A DNA stretch of 64,000 nt, from sequence record MK327934.1; one strand, 5' to 3'. The notes under the pieces are model-generated. The model ran no database searches. It worked only from the letters and a program-made list of their open reading frames with translations, and was not told the origin of the DNA. Positions 3,210 to 8,184 of the stretch are shown piece after piece. A program made the position numbers and the translations under genes. Source of the DNA: Escherichia phage vB_EcoM_G2469. The number at the start of each line of letters is the position of its first letter. Position 1 is the stretch's first letter.

Positions 3210-3966
3210 TTAGAAGTCGTGAGTAGAATCGGCTTCCATCGCAATAACATAACTTACTTGAGAGCTTTCAAACTTGGCTGCAACTTTATCACCAGCTCCC
3301 CACAACATTACTTTATAGTTACCTGGCTGGATTTTCATATTAGCCATATTGATTACGAAGTTAAAGTTGTTAGAACCATCATAATCGGTAAGAGTCAAAG
3401 AATACTTAGGACGAGTTAGTCCAGAATCTTCAACTTTATTATAGCCATTGATAACAATTTTACCATCTTTATTTGTAATAGCAATTGTATCAATCTGAAG
3501 ACCACGTGAAACTCGAAGTAATTGTTGAAGGTCTTCGGCTTTAATTTCAGTAATCACAGAAGCCACCGGGAATTGAATTGGCTTATTAGGAAAAACAATG
3601 GTGCTCTTGTCAGCGGCAGGCCAATAAACTGTGGAACGTGTATCTGCAATTTTAATATTGCCATCAGTGTGCATTGAAATTTCAGCATCATCAGACACTA
3701 GACTCAAAATGCTTAAGAAGCTATTCAAATCATAAAGTGCTATCATCAGACACTAGACTCAAAATGCTTAAGAAGCTATTCAAATCATAAAGTGCTACGT
3801 CAAAATCAATTTCATCAGAGATATTTGCTTCCGCATAAGTGGTGCCATTAACTGCACGAGTCATAATAAATTTACCTTGACTCAGCAGAATGCCGGAGTT
3901 AATAGAGGCGAAGTTTTTCAGAATAGCGATAGTATCTTTAGACAGTTTCATTTTATTTCCTTTCAA
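3210..3966 (-). CDS. 45: sliding clamp gp45, reading frame interrupted by a 55-bp tandem duplication; read as two ORFs 3730..3966 and 3210..3746
   Basis: N-fragment MKLSKDTIAILKNFASINSGILL...LSLVSDDSTL* and C-fragment MIALYDLNSFLSILSLVSDDAEISMHTDGNIKIAD...; removing one repeat copy restores a continuous 233-codon gp45. Confidence 0.85.
3688..3797. repeat. perfect direct tandem duplication, 2 x 55 bp
   Basis: 3688-3742 and 3743-3797 are identical (tcatcagacactagactcaaaatgcttaagaagctattcaaatcataaagtgcta); boundary ambiguous by 1 bp. Confidence 0.9.
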
Positions 3967-3993
3967 GACAATTAGAAGTTTATAACAAATTTA

Positions 3994-4410
3994 TTATGCA
4001 GCAACAATCTGCTTTTTAATAGCTTCAGGCAGTGATTCAATATATTCTGGAATTTTAGAAGCAACAATTTCGCCAGCTGCAATTAGTTGTTCGTCGGCAT
4101 CAACACAGTAGAAATCTTCTAGACGCTCAGAACCGTCTTTATCAAGAACTATTTTTCCGCCAGCTTCAATAGAATCTTTATAGTGCTTACGCATCAGATG
4201 AATCCACATATCAGATACATCATTATCAATAAAACCATAAATCATAAAACGAGTTTCTTGTGGCAAAGATTGGAGTTTTTTAGCACTTGCGTCATCACAA
4301 TGCAGGACCCATGCTTTACGAACACGATTATGGTTATGTGGGTTAGCGTCAGTACGGATAGAAGTAACTTTCAGATCAGCAGCAGTGAAACCTTTAGCAG
4401 TAGTAAACAT
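3994..4410 (-). CDS. rpbA: probable RNA polymerase-binding protein RpbA
   Basis: 138-aa ORF directly upstream of gene 45, position as T4 rpbA; named by synteny. Confidence 0.55.
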   Translation of the reverse strand: MFTTAKGFTAADLKVTSIRTDANPHNHNRVRKAWVLHCDDASAKKLQSLPQETRFMIYGFIDNDVSDMWIHLMRKHYKDSIEAGGKIVLDKDGSERLEDFYCVDADEQLIAAGEIVASKIPEYIESLPEAIKKQIVAA

Positions 4411-4422
4411 ATTATTTCTCTC

Positions 4423-4614
4423 TTATTCGTAGAAGTCGGTAACTGTCCATGCGGAATTGCGATTAGACATTATTTTATTATACTCATCTTTAAAAGCAGA
4501 TTTGAGCATTTGTTCAGTAACAATATGTTCTTCACCTGAAAACGTATTGGTCAAAACATATTTTTTAATTTCAGGGACAACGAGAAGATGTTGTCCGGTT
4601 GAATACTCCGCCAT
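4423..4614 (-). CDS. hypothetical protein (position of T4 45.2)
   Basis: 63-aa ORF between rpbA and gene 46 region. Confidence 0.5.
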   Translation of the reverse strand: MAEYSTGQHLLVVPEIKKYVLTNTFSGEEHIVTEQMLKSAFKDEYNKIMSNRNSAWTVTDFYE

Positions 4615-4638
4615 TATAAATCTCCGAGATTAAAGCAA

Positions 4639-4646
4639 TATAAATA
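4639..4646 (+). promoter_or_regulatory. T4-type late promoter TATAAATA for the plus-strand HNH gene
   Basis: Exact TATAAATA on the plus strand about 45 nt upstream of ATG 4692. Confidence 0.55.
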
Positions 4647-4691
4647 GGTTTATCAATTTATCTGTTGCTGTATCAAATAAGGATTTAGTAA

Positions 4692-5408
4692 ATGAATTAT
4701 AACTCAATATACGAAAAGCTTATCACCAATGCTAAATCAAGAAGTTTAGATGGTTATACAGAACGTCATCACATTATACCACAATGTTTAGGTGGAAGTG
4801 ATGATGCTTTAAACTTAGTAGACTTAACACCGGAAGAACATTATTTGGCACATCAACTGTTGGTAAAAATCCATCCAGATAATGCCTCTTTAATATATGC
4901 CGCTCGTATGATGACCATATCATCTCCTAAAGCAGATAGAAGCAAAAACAAATTATTTGGATGGCTTCGACGTAAGAATCAAGAAGTTCAAAAGAACAAA
5001 GAATTCACTGCTGAAACCCGTAAGAAAATGTCTGAGTCTGCAAAAAATAAACCAAAGATTACATGTCCACACTGCGGTTTAACCGGCACTGAAGGAAACA
5101 TGAGACGTTGGCATTTTGATAACTGTAAACAAGGCCCTACGCCTAAAATAGTAAAACTTGATCAAGAAACAAAAGATAAAATAATTAAAACCATGGCCAC
5201 GAAAATTTGGAAAGAAGATTCTTGCCCGTTTTGTGGCTTAACTACTAAGTTATCGGCGTTAAAGCCACATATAAAATTCTGTAAATCAAATCCTAACAGA
5301 AAGAAAAAAGAGGACAAGAAAATTAAATGTCCTCATTGCGATAAAATAGGGATCCCTGCTAATATGCATCGTTGGCATTTTGATAACTGTAAACATAAGC
5401 CTCATTAA
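4692..5408 (+). CDS. HNH endonuclease with three C-terminal zinc-finger-like repeats (putative free-standing homing endonuclease)
   Basis: HNH core ERHHIIPQCLGGSDDALNLVDLTPEEHYLAHQLL; three repeats of CPHCG...NMRRWHFDNC; only substantial plus-strand gene in the early block; AAGGA RBS upstream. Confidence 0.8.
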   Translation: MNYNSIYEKLITNAKSRSLDGYTERHHIIPQCLGGSDDALNLVDLTPEEHYLAHQLLVKIHPDNASLIYAARMMTISSPKADRSKNKLFGWLRRKNQEVQKNKEFTAETRKKMSESAKNKPKITCPHCGLTGTEGNMRRWHFDNCKQGPTPKIVKLDQETKDKIIKTMATKIWKEDSCPFCGLTTKLSALKPHIKFCKSNPNRKKKEDKKIKCPHCDKIGIPANMHRWHFDNCKHKPH

Positions 5409-7093
5409 GAGGCTTTCATTACAGTAAATCGTCCAACTTTGCTCATTTGCAAATGTTGTCCATAAGCTTGTGGGTCATGGTCTCTGTGACTAATTATAAA
5501 CACGTTTGCATCGGTTAGAGAGTTAAGAATTGTTGAAATAGCTTTAATACCTTCAGAATCAGTCGCGGAATCCATGACTTCGTCCATAATTAATGTATTG
5601 ATTCTAACACCAGAGACCTTTTCAGCGATATCTCGCCATGTAAACAACAATGCGATATCGATACGTGCCTTTTCACCTTGACTAAATGAAGCATAACTGA
5701 ATTCTTCACGTCCACGTGATTTTATAGATTCATTGAATTCTTCGTCAATAGAAAACACGTAATCAGCTTCCATGATTTTAAGATAATGGTTAATCTGCTT
5801 GTTGAACAGAGGCACATATTTTTTAATGATAGCACCTTTAATACCAGAATCTTTTAACATATCTGTGATAATACCACGATGGTATTTTTCAAGAACGATA
5901 TCCGATTTTGTTTTAATGATTTTATCAAGTTCTTTTTGAAGCAAAGCTATCTCATCGGCATGGTCGATAAATTCCGCCGAGGCTTGTTCTATTGCAGCTT
6001 TAACTTTCTTAGCTTTATCAATAGTGGCAATCATTGCTTGTTTCTTGGTACGAATATCAGATGCAATGTCCTGTTTAGTCTTAACATTAGCTCTATATTC
6101 GTCCACTAGGACACTCAGATTATCTCTGTGACAGGTAAGTTGCTCGAATGAGTGATTACATTCATGAAGCTTATCGGTAATCTTAGAGACAATAGGATCA
6201 CCCTGGTGCAACTGTGATGCACAAGTAGGACATGTGCCGCCATCATGATACATCTTAATAACTTTGTTATATGAGTCAATTTTAGATTTAATCAAGAATG
6301 CTTCTTGTCCTATCTTGTTGAATGCCTCAGTAGGGTCTTCATCAAGAACGATATTAAGTAGTCGCTCATTAGCTTCTTCTATTTCTGCTTTTAATGAACG
6401 AGCTTCTTTGGCTAGGTCGTCATACATATTCTGTAGACGCGCTACATTATCACCAGATAATTTCTTTTGACGTTCGATATTCTCGTTATAAATCTTAATT
6501 TGTTGGATAACACCATCTTTCTTGGCATCGAGAACTTGTCCCTGGGAATTAAGTTCTCGAACTTGAGACTTATTGATTTTATCCATTTCAGCGAGTGTGC
6601 CGACTTCTAAAAGGTCTTCGACAAGTTTTCTACGAGCAGGGGTGCTAAGAGCCATGAAAGGGGTATACCCTGCCGTCCCAAGCACAACTATTTGTTTAAA
6701 AGACGCGTATGACATTCCGATGCTACGTTCAAATTCTTCTTGGAAGTCACGACTGCTGGCAGATTCATCGAGACGAACACCATCAACGGAGATTTCGAAA
6801 ATATTGGGCTTTTGGCCACGTCTAATGAAGTATTTTTTATCATCGAATTCCATCCAAAGCTCAACTAAGAGCTCTTTCTTGTTCGTGCTATTAATGATTT
6901 GTCCTTTCTTAACATCACGAAATGGTTTACCGAAAAGTCCGAAAGTAATGGCTTCTAACATCGTAGATTTACCACCGCCGTTTTTACCTGTGATTAAGGT
7001 CTTTTGGACTTTATCTAATTGGATATCGATAAAATTTTGCCCAACAGACATTATATTTTTATAACGAACACGATTTAATTTAAATGTTTTCAC
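5405..7093 (-). CDS. 46: recombination endonuclease subunit gp46 (SbcC/Rad50-like ATPase)
   Basis: 562-aa ORF, Walker A GKNGGGKST, long coiled-coil, C-terminal signature; apparent GTG start at 7091-7093 directly after an in-frame stop. Confidence 0.9.
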   Translation of the reverse strand: MKTFKLNRVRYKNIMSVGQNFIDIQLDKVQKTLITGKNGGGKSTMLEAITFGLFGKPFRDVKKGQIINSTNKKELLVELWMEFDDKKYFIRRGQKPNIFEISVDGVRLDESASSRDFQEEFERSIGMSYASFKQIVVLGTAGYTPFMALSTPARRKLVEDLLEVGTLAEMDKINKSQVRELNSQGQVLDAKKDGVIQQIKIYNENIERQKKLSGDNVARLQNMYDDLAKEARSLKAEIEEANERLLNIVLDEDPTEAFNKIGQEAFLIKSKIDSYNKVIKMYHDGGTCPTCASQLHQGDPIVSKITDKLHECNHSFEQLTCHRDNLSVLVDEYRANVKTKQDIASDIRTKKQAMIATIDKAKKVKAAIEQASAEFIDHADEIALLQKELDKIIKTKSDIVLEKYHRGIITDMLKDSGIKGAIIKKYVPLFNKQINHYLKIMEADYVFSIDEEFNESIKSRGREEFSYASFSQGEKARIDIALLFTWRDIAEKVSGVRINTLIMDEVMDSATDSEGIKAISTILNSLTDANVFIISHRDHDPQAYGQHLQMSKVGRFTVMKAS

Positions 7094-7950
7094 TTAAATT
7101 TTTCCTCATGAATTCAGAAACTAAAGCCTGTAAAGAACTTTGTATAGGATATCCTAAATTGACTAAATTTTTAGAAAAAGTCACATATTTAGGTTTGTTC
7201 ATTTTAACCCATTCAACGTAAAGCATATCAAAATTTTCCCAATGATATCCTTTTCTTCTAGATTTCAAATGAGTGTCTCTAACTTTAGGATTTTTCCAAC
7301 TGCGTGAAACTCCAGCCGATAATGATTCTCTATATTCGGCTGTTTTAGATATTTTACGACAAGCATCCAAATGTTTTTGTTTATTAATAGGGTCACTAAA
7401 CCACTTTTGGGTCATAATAGAGACGGTTTCTTTAAATTCCTTTGAACTTGTCATAATTCTGTGTTTCTTTAAATTTTCCGGATTTTTAAACCATGCTTTT
7501 AAAGCTTGACTAATCTTAATTCTATTATCCTGATTGGAATAGTATAATGTCATTTTTATAGAATTAACTTTACAAACATTTTCGAATTCTAAAGAATACG
7601 CCTCGGCTATATTATTTAGTTCATGCGTTGTACAATTTAAATTAAATCGCCCGGTATACATTCTTTGAAGCGCGTTAATCATCTTATGGTTGCCAGTTTT
7701 TGCCAAAATGCTATGTGCAATAAAATGGTTATAATGACTTAAATGACACAAGTTCCATTTACATGTTTTAAAATCTGGAAAAATAGATTTTGGTAGTATA
7801 TGGTGAACCTGAGTCAGTCCTTTTACTTTATTAGTGGAATTAGTTTTTATAAAGTTTAAATACTCATCAAGTCCTTCCCACGAAGGGAAGGAGGTTTTAA
7901 GAATTTTATAAATTTGAGTTTCATAATCAGTCTTCGTCATTATACGCATC
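7080..7950 (-). CDS. HNH-like endonuclease with C-terminal NUMOD-like repeats (putative homing endonuclease)
   Basis: Motif VHHILPKS...WNLCHLSHYNHFIAH; repeats WFKNPENLKKH / WFSDPINKQKH / WKNPKVRDTHLK; overlaps gene 46 start and the upstream ORF. Confidence 0.6.
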
Positions 7951-8184
7951 CTCAATACACGCTTCAGCCATTTTAAGAATAGAGCCGGGAGTATCGTTGT
8001 CCATTATATTAAAGCTAAATTCAATAGCCCAGTCGGTGCAGACATGAACTGCTTTAACTTCATTGCCTTCAACGCGTAATGGCTCAATCCAATACTTGAT
8101 AGTGTTCTCGAATCCATCATCATCTTTAACGTCCATTTCAACTTCAAGCCCAAGCCCAGCATTGTTAAATTCATCTAAAGTCAT
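7927..8184 (-). CDS. hypothetical acidic protein (position of T4 46.1)
   Basis: 85-aa ORF between gene 47 and the HNH-like gene. Confidence 0.5.
   Translation of the reverse strand: MTLDEFNNAGLGLEVEMDVKDDDGFENTIKYWIEPLRVEGNEVKAVHVCTDWAIEFSFNIMDNDTPGSILKMAEACIEDAYNDED

Follow-up and report, generated by a model that had tools for sequence, protein, structure and literature searches.

A putative Mob-type HNH homing endonuclease gene with three I-TevIII-like zinc fingers on an 806-bp cassette between genes 45.2 and 46 of a Mosigvirus

MobE is the only Mob endonuclease of phage T4 to have been characterised: it makes an HNH-dependent nick in phage lacking its gene, and the flanks are co-converted (PMC2790892). 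The endonuclease genes of T4 are co-oriented with their neighbours, segD excepted (PMC2988022, section 9). For I-TevIII, zinc binding, the DNA-binding role of the fingers and dimerisation were all shown experimentally (PMC1865063). The DNA analysed here (the window; 64,000 nucleotides of Escherichia phage vB_EcoM_G2469, MK327934.1) comes from a Mosigvirus, that is, an RB69-like T-even phage, and one open reading frame (ORF) in it quite likely encodes a working homing endonuclease of the T-even Mob HNH class, its gene being free-standing and lying at the 45.2/46 junction within an 806-bp cassette. This kind of mobile phage gene is already known, as is the label ‘homing endonuclease' in several GenBank relatives; searches on the 45.2/46 endonuclease locus in the literature library used found no paper describing it.

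The cassette at the 45.2/46 junction

The gene, its cassette and its two neighbours are positioned in the window as follows.

4423..4614, minus strand: gene 45.2, the left neighbour (63 aa)
4610..5415, no strand assigned: inserted cassette of 806 bp, delimited by aligning the window with the empty RB69 site and the filled a20 site
4692..5408, plus strand: endonuclease coding sequence (238 aa), ATG start, ORF intact
5405..7093, minus strand: gene 46, the right neighbour (562 aa), Rad50/SbcC-like recombination nuclease subunit, convergent with the endonuclease gene

The 238-aa plus-strand ORF that a preliminary description of the sequence had reported was found at 4692..5408, together with the string quoted there (HHIIPQCLGGSDDALNLVDLTPEEHYLAHQLL). 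It had been called the only substantial plus-strand gene of its block, and the annotation of phage F2, a close and apparently collinear relative, agrees: the sole other opposite-strand gene in the block of ~48 kb encodes a 38-aa hypothetical protein. T4, as had been claimed, is without a gene here, its 45.2/46 spacer measuring 55 bp, and alignment of the window with RB69 and a20 showed that the RB69 spacer of 54 bp was replaced exactly by the cassette. A search for paralogues within the window gave just a weak match of the N-terminus (28% over 70 aa, E 0.002) with a second endonuclease gene, which lies beyond gene 46 at 7080-7955. That gene is distributed independently of the cassette: gene 46 is flanked in some phages by both endonuclease genes, in others by only one of them or by none.

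In a variable-column map of eight filled and six empty Mosigvirus loci, fixed differences between the two groups were located only at 4610-4615 and 5408-5415. The ends of the cassette are precisely fixed. No flank polymorphism outside 4610-5415 is fixed between the cassette-bearing and the empty loci, so that neither a clean tract of co-conversion nor a signature of immunity is seen. A synonymous change of a Leu codon at 5450-5452 (CTT to TTG), found in five of the eight cassette loci, was considered as a marker of immunity or co-conversion and rejected, as it occurs also in JK36 and JK45, both of which lack the cassette.

Predicted domains of the encoded protein

The protein matches PHROG 655 ‘homing endonuclease' (E 7e-67), has 2533 homologues at E<=1e-5 and gives an AlphaFold2 model with a mean pLDDT of 93. 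Its predicted parts are these.

4692..4994, plus strand: Mob-type HNH (beta-beta-alpha-metal) catalytic domain, residues 1-101 (BLASTP, family profile, predicted structure)
5064..5126, plus strand: zinc finger 1, CPHCGLTGTEGNMRRWHFDNC, residues 125-145, CX2CX12HX3C (motif scan)
5223..5282, plus strand: zinc finger 2, CPFCGLTTKLSALKPHIKFC, residues 178-197, CX2CX11HX3C (motif scan, predicted structure)
5328..5390, plus strand: zinc finger 3, CPHCDKIGIPANMHRWHFDNC, residues 213-233, CX2CX12HX3C (motif scan, I-TevIII alignment)

The N-terminal domain is of the type that defines the T-even Mob family. BLASTP aligned the protein with T4 MobB (43.5% over 131 aa, E 1e-24), T4 MobD (E 7e-24), RB3 MobE (44% over 95 aa, E 2e-21) and T4 MobC (E 3e-18); each match starts at residue 1, and the matches cover the N-terminal 95-150 aa at 36-44% identity. 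The HNH motif residues are H26/H27, N41, H50 and H54. Across 68 homologues H27, N41, H50 and H54 do not vary, and the pair HH26-27 is invariant or nearly so. The motif residues lie in the order His...Asn...His on a predicted strand-strand-helix core, as is characteristic of the HNH superfamily: in the AlphaFold2 model, strands 24-27 and 42-45 are followed by a helix at 47-60, with a pLDDT of 95.

The window protein itself remains below the Pfam HNH threshold (HNH_5, 13.5 bits vs a cut-off of 27.5), matches none of the NCBIfam HNH models and, in a single-protein sequence search of the PDB, found nothing significant (the best match being a LapB zinc-ribbon region, E 0.14). Because it falls under the Pfam thresholds, the HNH call uses evidence from family-level profiles. 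A search of the PDB with the family profile retrieved the HNH domain of McrA (E 0.0028), aligned across HH..N..H (HHVIP..GG..N..H in McrA); Pfam HNH (PF01844) was matched by 41 of the 68 homologues at E<=0.01 (best 2.9e-5), and NUMOD3 by 32 of them. The identification of the N-terminus as an HNH domain, and with it the earlier claim of an HNH endonuclease, is thus supported by the profile matches, the Mob homology (E 1e-18 to 1e-24) and the match to PHROG 655.

Three fingers follow, all fitting CX2CX11-12HX3C and each predicted as strand-strand-helix (in finger 1, strands at 122-124 and 131-133 and a helix at 134-144). Three repeats of CPHCG...RWHFDNC had been described; the number holds, but CPHC...RWHFDNC is found only in fingers 1 and 3, the middle one reading CPFCG...PHIKFC. 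Finger 1 is retained in every orthologue compared, and its region (5041-5140) holds ten differences between allele groups, all of them synonymous between the window and a20. The ligands of finger 3 (C213, C216, H229 and C233) are invariant in the 68 homologues.

The fingers form a tandem C-terminal array with sequence homology to the DNA-binding domain of I-TevIII: residues 163-236 align with 196-266 of RB3 I-TevIII (37% over 76 aa, E 7e-10 in a two-sequence database), finger 2 with its zinc finger 1 (C211-C231) and finger 3 with its zinc finger 2 (C242-C263). In a tblastn search of a phage collection, the last 87 aa matched the I-TevIII of several phages, T4 and RB5 among them (E 5e-5 to 2e-4), and PHROG 12324 and 27406 were matched as well. 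By homology to I-TevIII, the fingers are expected to bind zinc and DNA, and the protein may dimerise. The protein is a chimera of a Mob-type HNH N-terminus and an I-TevIII-type zinc-finger C-terminus. An orthologue of I-TevIII was rejected as a classification, the gene being free-standing and its N-terminal domain without an I-TevIII alignment.

Expression signals and rebuilt neighbour signals

The cassette carries candidate signals for its own gene and for both neighbours.

4610..4625, minus strand: cassette-rebuilt start of gene 45.2, with ATG at 4612-4614 and a GGAG ribosome-binding site (RBS; complement of 4622-4625)
4613..4638, minus strand: possible T4 middle (MotA-type) promoter read from the sequence, TTGCTTTAA at 4630-4638, 12 nt, and TATAAT at 4613-4618
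4639..4646, plus strand: T4-type late promoter consensus TATAAATA (gp55-dependent -10 element), exact match
4679..4683, plus strand: Shine-Dalgarno sequence AAGGA, 8 nt before the ATG, read from the sequence
5397..5415, no strand assigned: cassette-borne hairpin AAGCCTC-ATTAA-GAGGCTT (RNA fold)
5405..5415, minus strand: cassette-derived end of gene 46, comprising its final three codons and the stop (..VMKAS* vs ..VMTVS* in RB69)

The exact late-promoter motif described earlier is present, with 45 nt between its end (4646) and the ATG of the endonuclease gene, a placement suitable for a T4-type late promoter. Its significance is due to position and conservation and not to frequency: TATAAATA has nine matches in the window against 8.2 expected, and at least nine were seen in 44 of 100 shuffles, which is no enrichment. 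All three plus-strand copies in the window sit 32-45 nt upstream of a long plus-strand ORF. In a20, IME281, FL08 and Roth77 the orthologous gene is likewise preceded by the motif, at a distance of 41-53 nt; four of five lineages (that of the window included) show this relative placement, and the site in Cronuts is degenerate (CCTAAATA). On this evidence, TATAAATA would drive the endonuclease gene. A consensus scan of 4300-5700 gave no sigma-70 promoter signal beyond chance. In the aligned 5′-untranslated regions (5′-UTRs), AGGA is retained in IME281, FL08 and Roth77, and a motif TTTATC..CGCTGTATCAAA is common to several lineages.

Two further candidates in this region were rejected. RNA structure hiding the RBS was not found in the 5′-UTR, whose fold (−7.2 kcal mol−1, z −0.07) is that of a shuffled sequence. 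Operator mimicry of the I-TevI kind was sought by local alignment of 4620-4695 with the empty sites of RB69 and T4 on both strands, in which 99-290 of 300 shuffles scored equally; the sole 9-mer in common is the complement of the MotA box.

The rebuilt start of gene 45.2 contains an extra Ala codon (MAEY, vs MEY in RB69 and T4), which is found also in Tequatrovirus FL08, a carrier of the gene. At the other edge, the hairpin encloses the overlapping stops of the endonuclease gene (5406-5408, plus strand) and gene 46 (5405-5407, minus strand). The RNA fold of 5370-5450 has −23.4 kcal mol−1 (z −4.5), a value equalled by none of 200 shuffles; an equivalent hairpin is found in IME281, and the Roth77 version is changed on both arms (AGACCTC/GAGGTCT). 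It may mark the transcript ends of the two convergent genes or act much like a terminator; a consensus terminator scan called no intrinsic terminator in 4300-5700, the hairpin included. More speculatively, a minus-strand MotA-type promoter could lie at 4613..4638, back to back with the late promoter. The spacers of the T4 and RB69 empty sites, which the cassette replaced, hold a MotA box plus TATAAT, an element that the annotation of phage SA79RD calls ‘similar to phage T4 middle promoter'; in the IME281 and FL08 cassettes the MotA-type promoter is not conserved. Together, the rebuilt signals (the 45.2 start and RBS, the gene 46 end, the hairpin and possibly the middle promoter) would limit the cost of the cassette to the phage.

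Distribution, alternative readings and relation to known systems

The preliminary description had placed the gene between 45.2 and 46 on the opposite strand, had described such genes as typically absent from close relatives and had proposed a comparison of the 45.2-46 junction; both the placement and a sporadic rather than uniform presence were confirmed. Of the 243 records matching the region, 13 carry the cassette; they stem from 11 different phages, out of about 150 close relatives, and the share among sampled Mosigvirus records is ~8%. RB69 and T4 are empty at 45.2/46. Such a free-standing position between conserved genes, with absence from some relatives, is that of the Mob family. Genes 98-100% identical at the same locus were found in GenBank in FL31, a20, NRG-P0074, NHEP10, F2, ESCO47 and 348Ecol098PP, labelled by pipeline annotation only as ‘homing endonuclease', ‘putative homing endonuclease' or ‘HNH nuclease'; the same gene is a ‘hypothetical protein' in G2285 and was not called in ST0.

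Beyond these, four other sampled lineages (Dhakavirus IME281, Tequatrovirus FL08, Pseudotevenvirus Cronuts and Klebsiella phage Roth77) have orthologues with 45-68% protein identity, likewise antisense at 45.2/46, and the gene adjoins gene 46 also in RB33, teqhal, phT4A and others. The gene is not unique to its source phage: one orthologous lineage occupies this junction in five lineages or more. The dN/dS against orthologues is 0.011-0.323, and among Mosigvirus alleles 0.01-0.02 (13-20 synonymous vs 1 non-synonymous change); the protein is therefore under purifying selection. A signature of horizontal transfer is provided by ESCO47, where identity to the window is 81-86% in genes 45, rpbA and 45.2 but reaches 97-99% within the cassette and stays at 96-98% across gene 46, the step from 83 to 98% falling exactly at the left edge of the cassette. 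A further one is seen in mar005p1, where the flanks are 98% identical to the window and the 3′ third of the endonuclease gene only 59%, pointing to a swap of the region of fingers 2-3.

The earlier reading as a free-standing HNH homing endonuclease is upheld by the Mob homology, the PHROG 655 match, the sporadic presence and the position-conserved late-promoter consensus, and the gene is probably functional and expressed late, with nuclease activity and mobility being expected from its sequence. Under the proposed mechanism, gp55-directed RNA polymerase would initiate a few bases past 4646 late in infection and produce a monocistronic message. The zinc-finger array and the NUMOD3-like helices between the fingers would bind a long site at or near the empty 45.2/46 junction of a co-infecting phage free of the cassette, where the tethered HNH domain might nick, as MobE does, or as a dimer cut both strands, as I-TevIII does. 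Recombinational repair would then copy the cassette with some flanking donor DNA, and the donor would be immune because the cassette replaced the spacer that would hold the target site.

It is unlikely that the gene was instead domesticated as a nuclease kept for competition, cutting related co-infecting phages (marker exclusion) or satellites. A long stay at one site, shared by five lineages whose proteins are 45-68% identical, would be better explained in this way than by repeated selfish invasion, and the strong purifying selection and the replacement signals that the cassette carries for its neighbours are in line with it; in other phages, moreover, endonuclease genes lie in clusters close to essential genes and delimit exchanged stretches of DNA (PMC10448857). 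Yet presence in ~8% of sampled Mosigvirus records fits a generally useful gene poorly, no defence-related domain was found in the protein, and the cleavage and repair would be the same, so that the difference lies in the selective rationale and not in the biochemistry.

Counting against the homing reading, a long-standing presence at one locus in several genera is also compatible with vertical descent and repeated losses. In a further reading, which we regard as quite unlikely, the gene belongs to an old ‘resident' endonuclease lineage locked antisense to the Straboviridae 45.2/46 junction, its late promoter, hairpin and rebuilt signals having become part of the regulation of the locus. If so, the cassette could shut down or process the transcripts of gene 46 to gene 45 late in infection, its loss would be costly, and the three-finger array would be a distinct, retargetable module for reading DNA (compare the mar005p1 swap).

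A decaying or catalytically dead relic, kept only because the start of 45.2, the end of gene 46 and their regulatory signals would be lost with it, is very unlikely. The cassette does supply the start codon and RBS of 45.2 and the last codons of gene 46, embedded host promoters favour the retention of such genes (PMC2988022, section 9), and T4 I-TevIII is itself a truncated relic (PMC1865063); but the ORF is full length in all 11 cassette phages, orthologues retain every HNH motif residue along with the 12 zinc ligands, and the dN/dS among Mosigvirus alleles given above speaks against decay.

Highly improbable, too, is a main product that is an antisense RNA against the early/middle transcripts of genes 46, 45.2, rpbA and 45, or a zinc-finger repressor binding its own promoter region, for late tuning of replication and recombination genes: the antisense orientation kept in all orthologous loci, the conserved 5′-UTR motif TTTATC..CGCTGTATCAAA and the autorepression of I-TevI at its own late promoter (PMC2988022) speak for it, but the promoter/UTR has no significant similarity to the empty sites, the 5′-UTR folds no better than shuffles, the hairpin at 5397-5415 would tend to halt the transcript before it runs far into gene 46, and neither function needs the conserved catalytic motif.

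Read as a homing endonuclease gene, the locus leaves the current understanding of homing elements unchanged and adds a clean natural example to the T-even catalogue. Near-identical phage pairs with and without the cassette, such as a20 and RB69, are usable for mapping the target site of an HNH enzyme, and could show whether a Mob-type enzyme nicks or cuts and how the cassette spares its neighbours.

The closest known systems are the T4 Mob endonucleases, I-TevIII of phage RB3 and, in orientation, T4 segD. Like T4 MobB, MobC, MobD and MobE, the protein has an N-terminal Mob-type HNH domain (MNYxxIY...HHIIPxCxGGxDDxxNLVxLTxxEH) and its gene is free-standing between conserved genes with a sporadic distribution; that the C-terminal domain differs by member is a feature of the Mob family (PMC2790892). 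The three CCHC zinc fingers are absent from those four T4 proteins, however, 45.2/46 is not among the T4 Mob insertion sites, and the gene runs antisense to its neighbours with a late-promoter consensus of its own, whereas mobE is promoterless (PMC2988022).

As in RB3 I-TevIII, the HNH domain is at the N-terminus and a zinc-finger DNA-binding domain at the C-terminus (PMC1865063); fingers 2 and 3, with a CK(S/L)NPNR linker, align to I-TevIII 196-266, and the spacing CX2CX11-12HX3C matches its CX2CX12-13HX3C. I-TevIII, by contrast, lies in the nrdB group I intron, has two fingers rather than three and has an HNH of the type HHKDGNRENN, no N-terminal part being aligned by BLASTP, whereas the present gene is free-standing at 45.2/46 with a Mob-type HNH. 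The protein exemplifies domain shuffling, a Mob-type HNH being joined to I-TevIII-type fingers with a third finger added. In its antisense, free-standing placement the gene resembles T4 segD (PMC2988022, section 9). The arrangement is rare in that segD, the one antisense case in the T4 review, is of the GIY-YIG family and without an identifiable promoter of its own (PMC2988022), whereas here a conserved TATAAATA stands 45 nt upstream.

Position of the cassette and its neighbours

The open reading frame (ORF) lies in the gene order regA, 62, 44, 45, rpbA, 45.2, [ORF], 46, in which all other genes are on the minus strand, and Mosigvirus (RB69-like) phages are 98–99% identical to this region. The locus is composed of:

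4423-4614, minus strand: gene 45.2, left neighbour of the ORF
4692-5408, plus strand: endonuclease ORF (ATG start, 238 aa)
5405-7093, minus strand: gene 46, right neighbour of the ORF

That it is the sole substantial plus-strand gene of its block, as the preliminary description proposed, was supported via phage F2, a close relative that is apparently collinear with the window and was used for the block-wide strand check: the F2 homologue is the only opposite-strand gene >38 aa in a ~48-kb co-oriented block. The taxonomy line of the F2 record (MN864145.1/NC_054913.1) reads Tequatrovirus, a classification that looks wrong because the sequence is 97.8% identical to the Mosigvirus window and the gene content is RB69-type.

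In an alignment of the window with RB69 (empty site) and a20 (filled site), 806 bp (window 4610-5415) stand in place of the 54-bp 45.2/46 spacer of RB69. T4 is likewise empty, with a 55-bp spacer only, in line with the preliminary description. The predicted absence from relatives was also borne out: besides RB69 and T4 being empty, the cassette is present in 13 of the 243 phage records matching the region (11 distinct phages). Flank identity is 90% or more in ~150 of the records. Between eight filled and six empty Mosigvirus loci, fixed differences were found only at the two edges of the cassette, and no flank polymorphism was fixed between genomes with and without it.

Both neighbours are rebuilt by the cassette, which supplies the start codon and GGAG ribosome-binding site of 45.2, adds an Ala codon to it (MAEY vs MEY) and provides the three codons with which gene 46 ends (KAS* vs TVS*). 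The ORF stop codon (5406-5408) overlaps that of gene 46 (5405-7, minus strand), and both lie inside a hairpin:

5397-5415, no strand assigned: hairpin AAGCCTC-ATTAA-GAGGCTT

The extended fold (5370-5450) reaches −23.4 kcal mol−1 (z −4.5), and IME281 has an equivalent hairpin, as does Roth77, where both arms are altered. The 3′ coding end of the endonuclease (..RWHFDNCKHKPH*) resembles that of gene 46 on the opposite strand (..VGRFTVMKAS*), each in its own sense (GTTGG..GAT.ACTGTAA..AAGCCTC..TTAA), and jointly they form an inverted repeat (5370-5437) extending beyond the cassette-borne 7-bp hairpin. This repeat could be a coincidence of two coding sequences that are each under constraint, or could be tied to how the cassette settled at the junction.

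Two further peculiarities were observed nearby. Gene 45 (minus strand) contains a perfect 55-bp tandem duplication (3687-3797; 2.0 copies, 100% match) that shifts the frame of this essential sliding-clamp gene (178 aa in the ORF list instead of 228). It occurs in none of 197 related records, which match the 301-bp query over a 246-bp span, and it reflects either an error in assembly or sequencing or a genuine mutant allele. In G2285 (locus L011, 3109-3998, corresponding to window ~3900-3990), 849 extra bp, which hold a pair of hypothetical ORFs (120 and 184 aa), separate gene 45 from rpbA, another variable insertion near the cassette.

Domain composition of the putative endonuclease

The HNH string quoted in the preliminary description is present in the 238-aa translation, which matches PHROG 655 'homing endonuclease' (E 7e-67). 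No Pfam or NCBIfam model scored above threshold for the single protein (HNH_5, 13.5 bits vs a cut-off of 27.5). Membership of the HNH class is supported at the family level, as a profile of 68 homologues, compared with PDB, matched the HNH domain of McrA (E 0.0028, alignment spanning HH..N..H), and 41 and 32 of the 68 matched Pfam HNH and NUMOD3, respectively. The N-terminal 95–150 residues match T4 MobB (43.5%, E 1e-24), MobD (E 7e-24) and MobC (E 3e-18), and RB3 MobE (44%, E 2e-21). Mob proteins have the N-terminal HNH domain in common and differ in their C-terminal domains, and the site-specific nick of MobE is abolished without its HNH motif (PMC2790892).

Three Cys-X2-Cys...His-X3-Cys modules follow:

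residues 125-145: zinc finger 1
residues 178-197: zinc finger 2
residues 213-233: zinc finger 3

The three CPHCG...RWHFDNC repeats described earlier were slightly overstated: three modules exist, of which the first and third read CPHC...RWHFDNC and the middle one CPFCG...PHIKFC. Residues 163-236 align with 196-266 of RB3 I-TevIII (37% identity), covering both I-TevIII zinc fingers and their linker. Those fingers (CX2CX12-13HX3C) bind zinc and are required for DNA binding, and I-TevIII acts as a dimer, cleaving at distances of 14 and 16 bp from the insertion site (PMC1865063). From the Mob matches and the I-TevIII alignment, the protein is therefore a chimera of a Mob-type HNH domain and I-TevIII-type fingers, with one finger more than I-TevIII. 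In confident AlphaFold2 models (pLDDT 93 at full length, 95.5 for residues 1-101), the HNH motif and every finger adopt a strand-strand-helix arrangement.

Indications of mobility and of selection

The 45.2/46 junction also houses orthologues (45–68% identical), again antisense, in Dhakavirus IME281, Tequatrovirus FL08, Pseudotevenvirus Cronuts and Klebsiella phage Roth77, and orthologues adjoin gene 46 in further phages, among them RB33, teqhal and phT4A; more distant homologues (30–37%) sit elsewhere, for example at neck or head-completion genes and nrdA. ESCO47 is 81–86% identical to the window in genes 45, rpbA and 45.2, yet 97–99% in the cassette and 96–98% in gene 46; therefore an exchange boundary coincides with the left edge of the cassette. 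In Mosigvirus mar005p1, identity is 98% in the flanks and 97% in the 5′ part of the gene (97–98% for the rest of gene and flanks), while the last third with fingers 2-3 (locus L013 ~5240-5509, window 5141-5415) is only 59% identical, a swap of the DNA-binding end at the same locus.

A second endonuclease gene was found:

7080-7955, minus strand: free-standing HNH gene with MobD-like C-terminus, directly upstream of gene 46, in place of gene 46.1

F2 and SQ17 carry versions of this second gene with 99.7% identity to it. Both genes are carried by the window and F2, only the second by SQ17, only the first by a20, NHEP10, ST0, G2285, ESCO47 and mar005p1, and neither by RB69; two endonuclease genes with independent distributions thus flank gene 46. 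These patterns agree with published accounts of nuclease genes that border exchanged DNA (PMC10448857).

None of the motif residues and none of the 12 zinc ligands is lost in the orthologues. dN/dS is 0.011–0.017 among Mosigvirus alleles (13–20 synonymous vs 1 non-synonymous change) and 0.13–0.32 between lineages. Two allele groups (window, NHEP10, ST0, G2285 and ESCO47 vs a20, F2 and mar005p1) differ by 10 substitutions (10%) over a 100-bp patch covering finger 1 (5041-5140), compared with 1–3% elsewhere in the gene. The window–a20 changes there are all synonymous. This patch, which looks like gene conversion, points to recombination between alleles under constraint.

Candidate transcription signals and proposed homing

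The expected late-promoter motif ~45 nt upstream of the gene is present and exact:

4613-4638, minus strand: TTGCTTTAA, 12 nt, TATAAT, in the Mosigvirus cassette
4639-4646, plus strand: TATAAATA, late-promoter octamer, 45 nt upstream of the start codon
8 nt before the ATG, plus strand: AAGGA, read from the sequence

TATAAATA shows no enrichment over the window (9 matches vs 8.2 expected); despite this, its position is informative, as all three plus-strand copies lie 32–45 nt upstream of a long plus-strand ORF. In a20, IME281, FL08 and Roth77 it recurs 41–53 nt ahead of the orthologous start codon (the Cronuts copy is degenerate), and this conservation, across proteins only 57–68% identical, is the best evidence for its use. 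A 5′-UTR motif, TTTATC(N3-4)CGCTGTATCAAA, is kept over the same range of protein identity in the window (4652-4691) and three loci with an orthologue (L003, L004 and L006), the window copy being partly duplicated (TTTATCAATTTATCTGTTGCTGTATCAAA). No significant RNA fold or similarity to the empty site was found in the 5′-UTR (4652-4691), nor any operator-like copy of the empty site at the endonuclease promoter.

In RB69 and T4, the empty site includes a hairpin as well as a MotA-box with TATAAT, annotated in SA79RD as terminator and middle promoter, respectively. The minus-strand element at 4613-4638 may be a candidate substitute middle promoter, a speculative reading because it is unconserved in other lineages.

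Following late transcription, the endonuclease would be made and its finger array would bind an extended site in a co-infecting phage, at the empty junction or close to it; the HNH domain would nick, or cut as a dimer, and repair would copy the cassette from the donor, itself protected because the cassette replaced the spacer.

The observation in the preliminary description is confirmed and its interpretation supported. The gene is an unremarkable, though neatly arranged, representative of a known class, a putative homing endonuclease, already recognised by database annotation. That annotation is inconsistent among relatives: 'homing endonuclease' or 'HNH nuclease' in a20, NRG-P0074, NHEP10, F2, ESCO47, FL31 and 348Ecol098PP, 'hypothetical protein' in G2285 and uncalled in ST0. 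Its minor interest lies in the chimeric domains, in the pairing of antisense orientation with a late promoter, and in one gene lineage having persisted at a single junction in five phage lineages. Endonuclease-specific promoters in T4 are middle or late, and T4 endonuclease genes are all co-oriented with their neighbours save the promoterless segD (PMC2988022, section 9); thus the combination of antisense orientation and a dedicated late promoter, although foreseen by that review (PMC2988022), is uncommon. Like segD, the present gene is antisense, whereas unlike segD it has a conserved TATAAATA.
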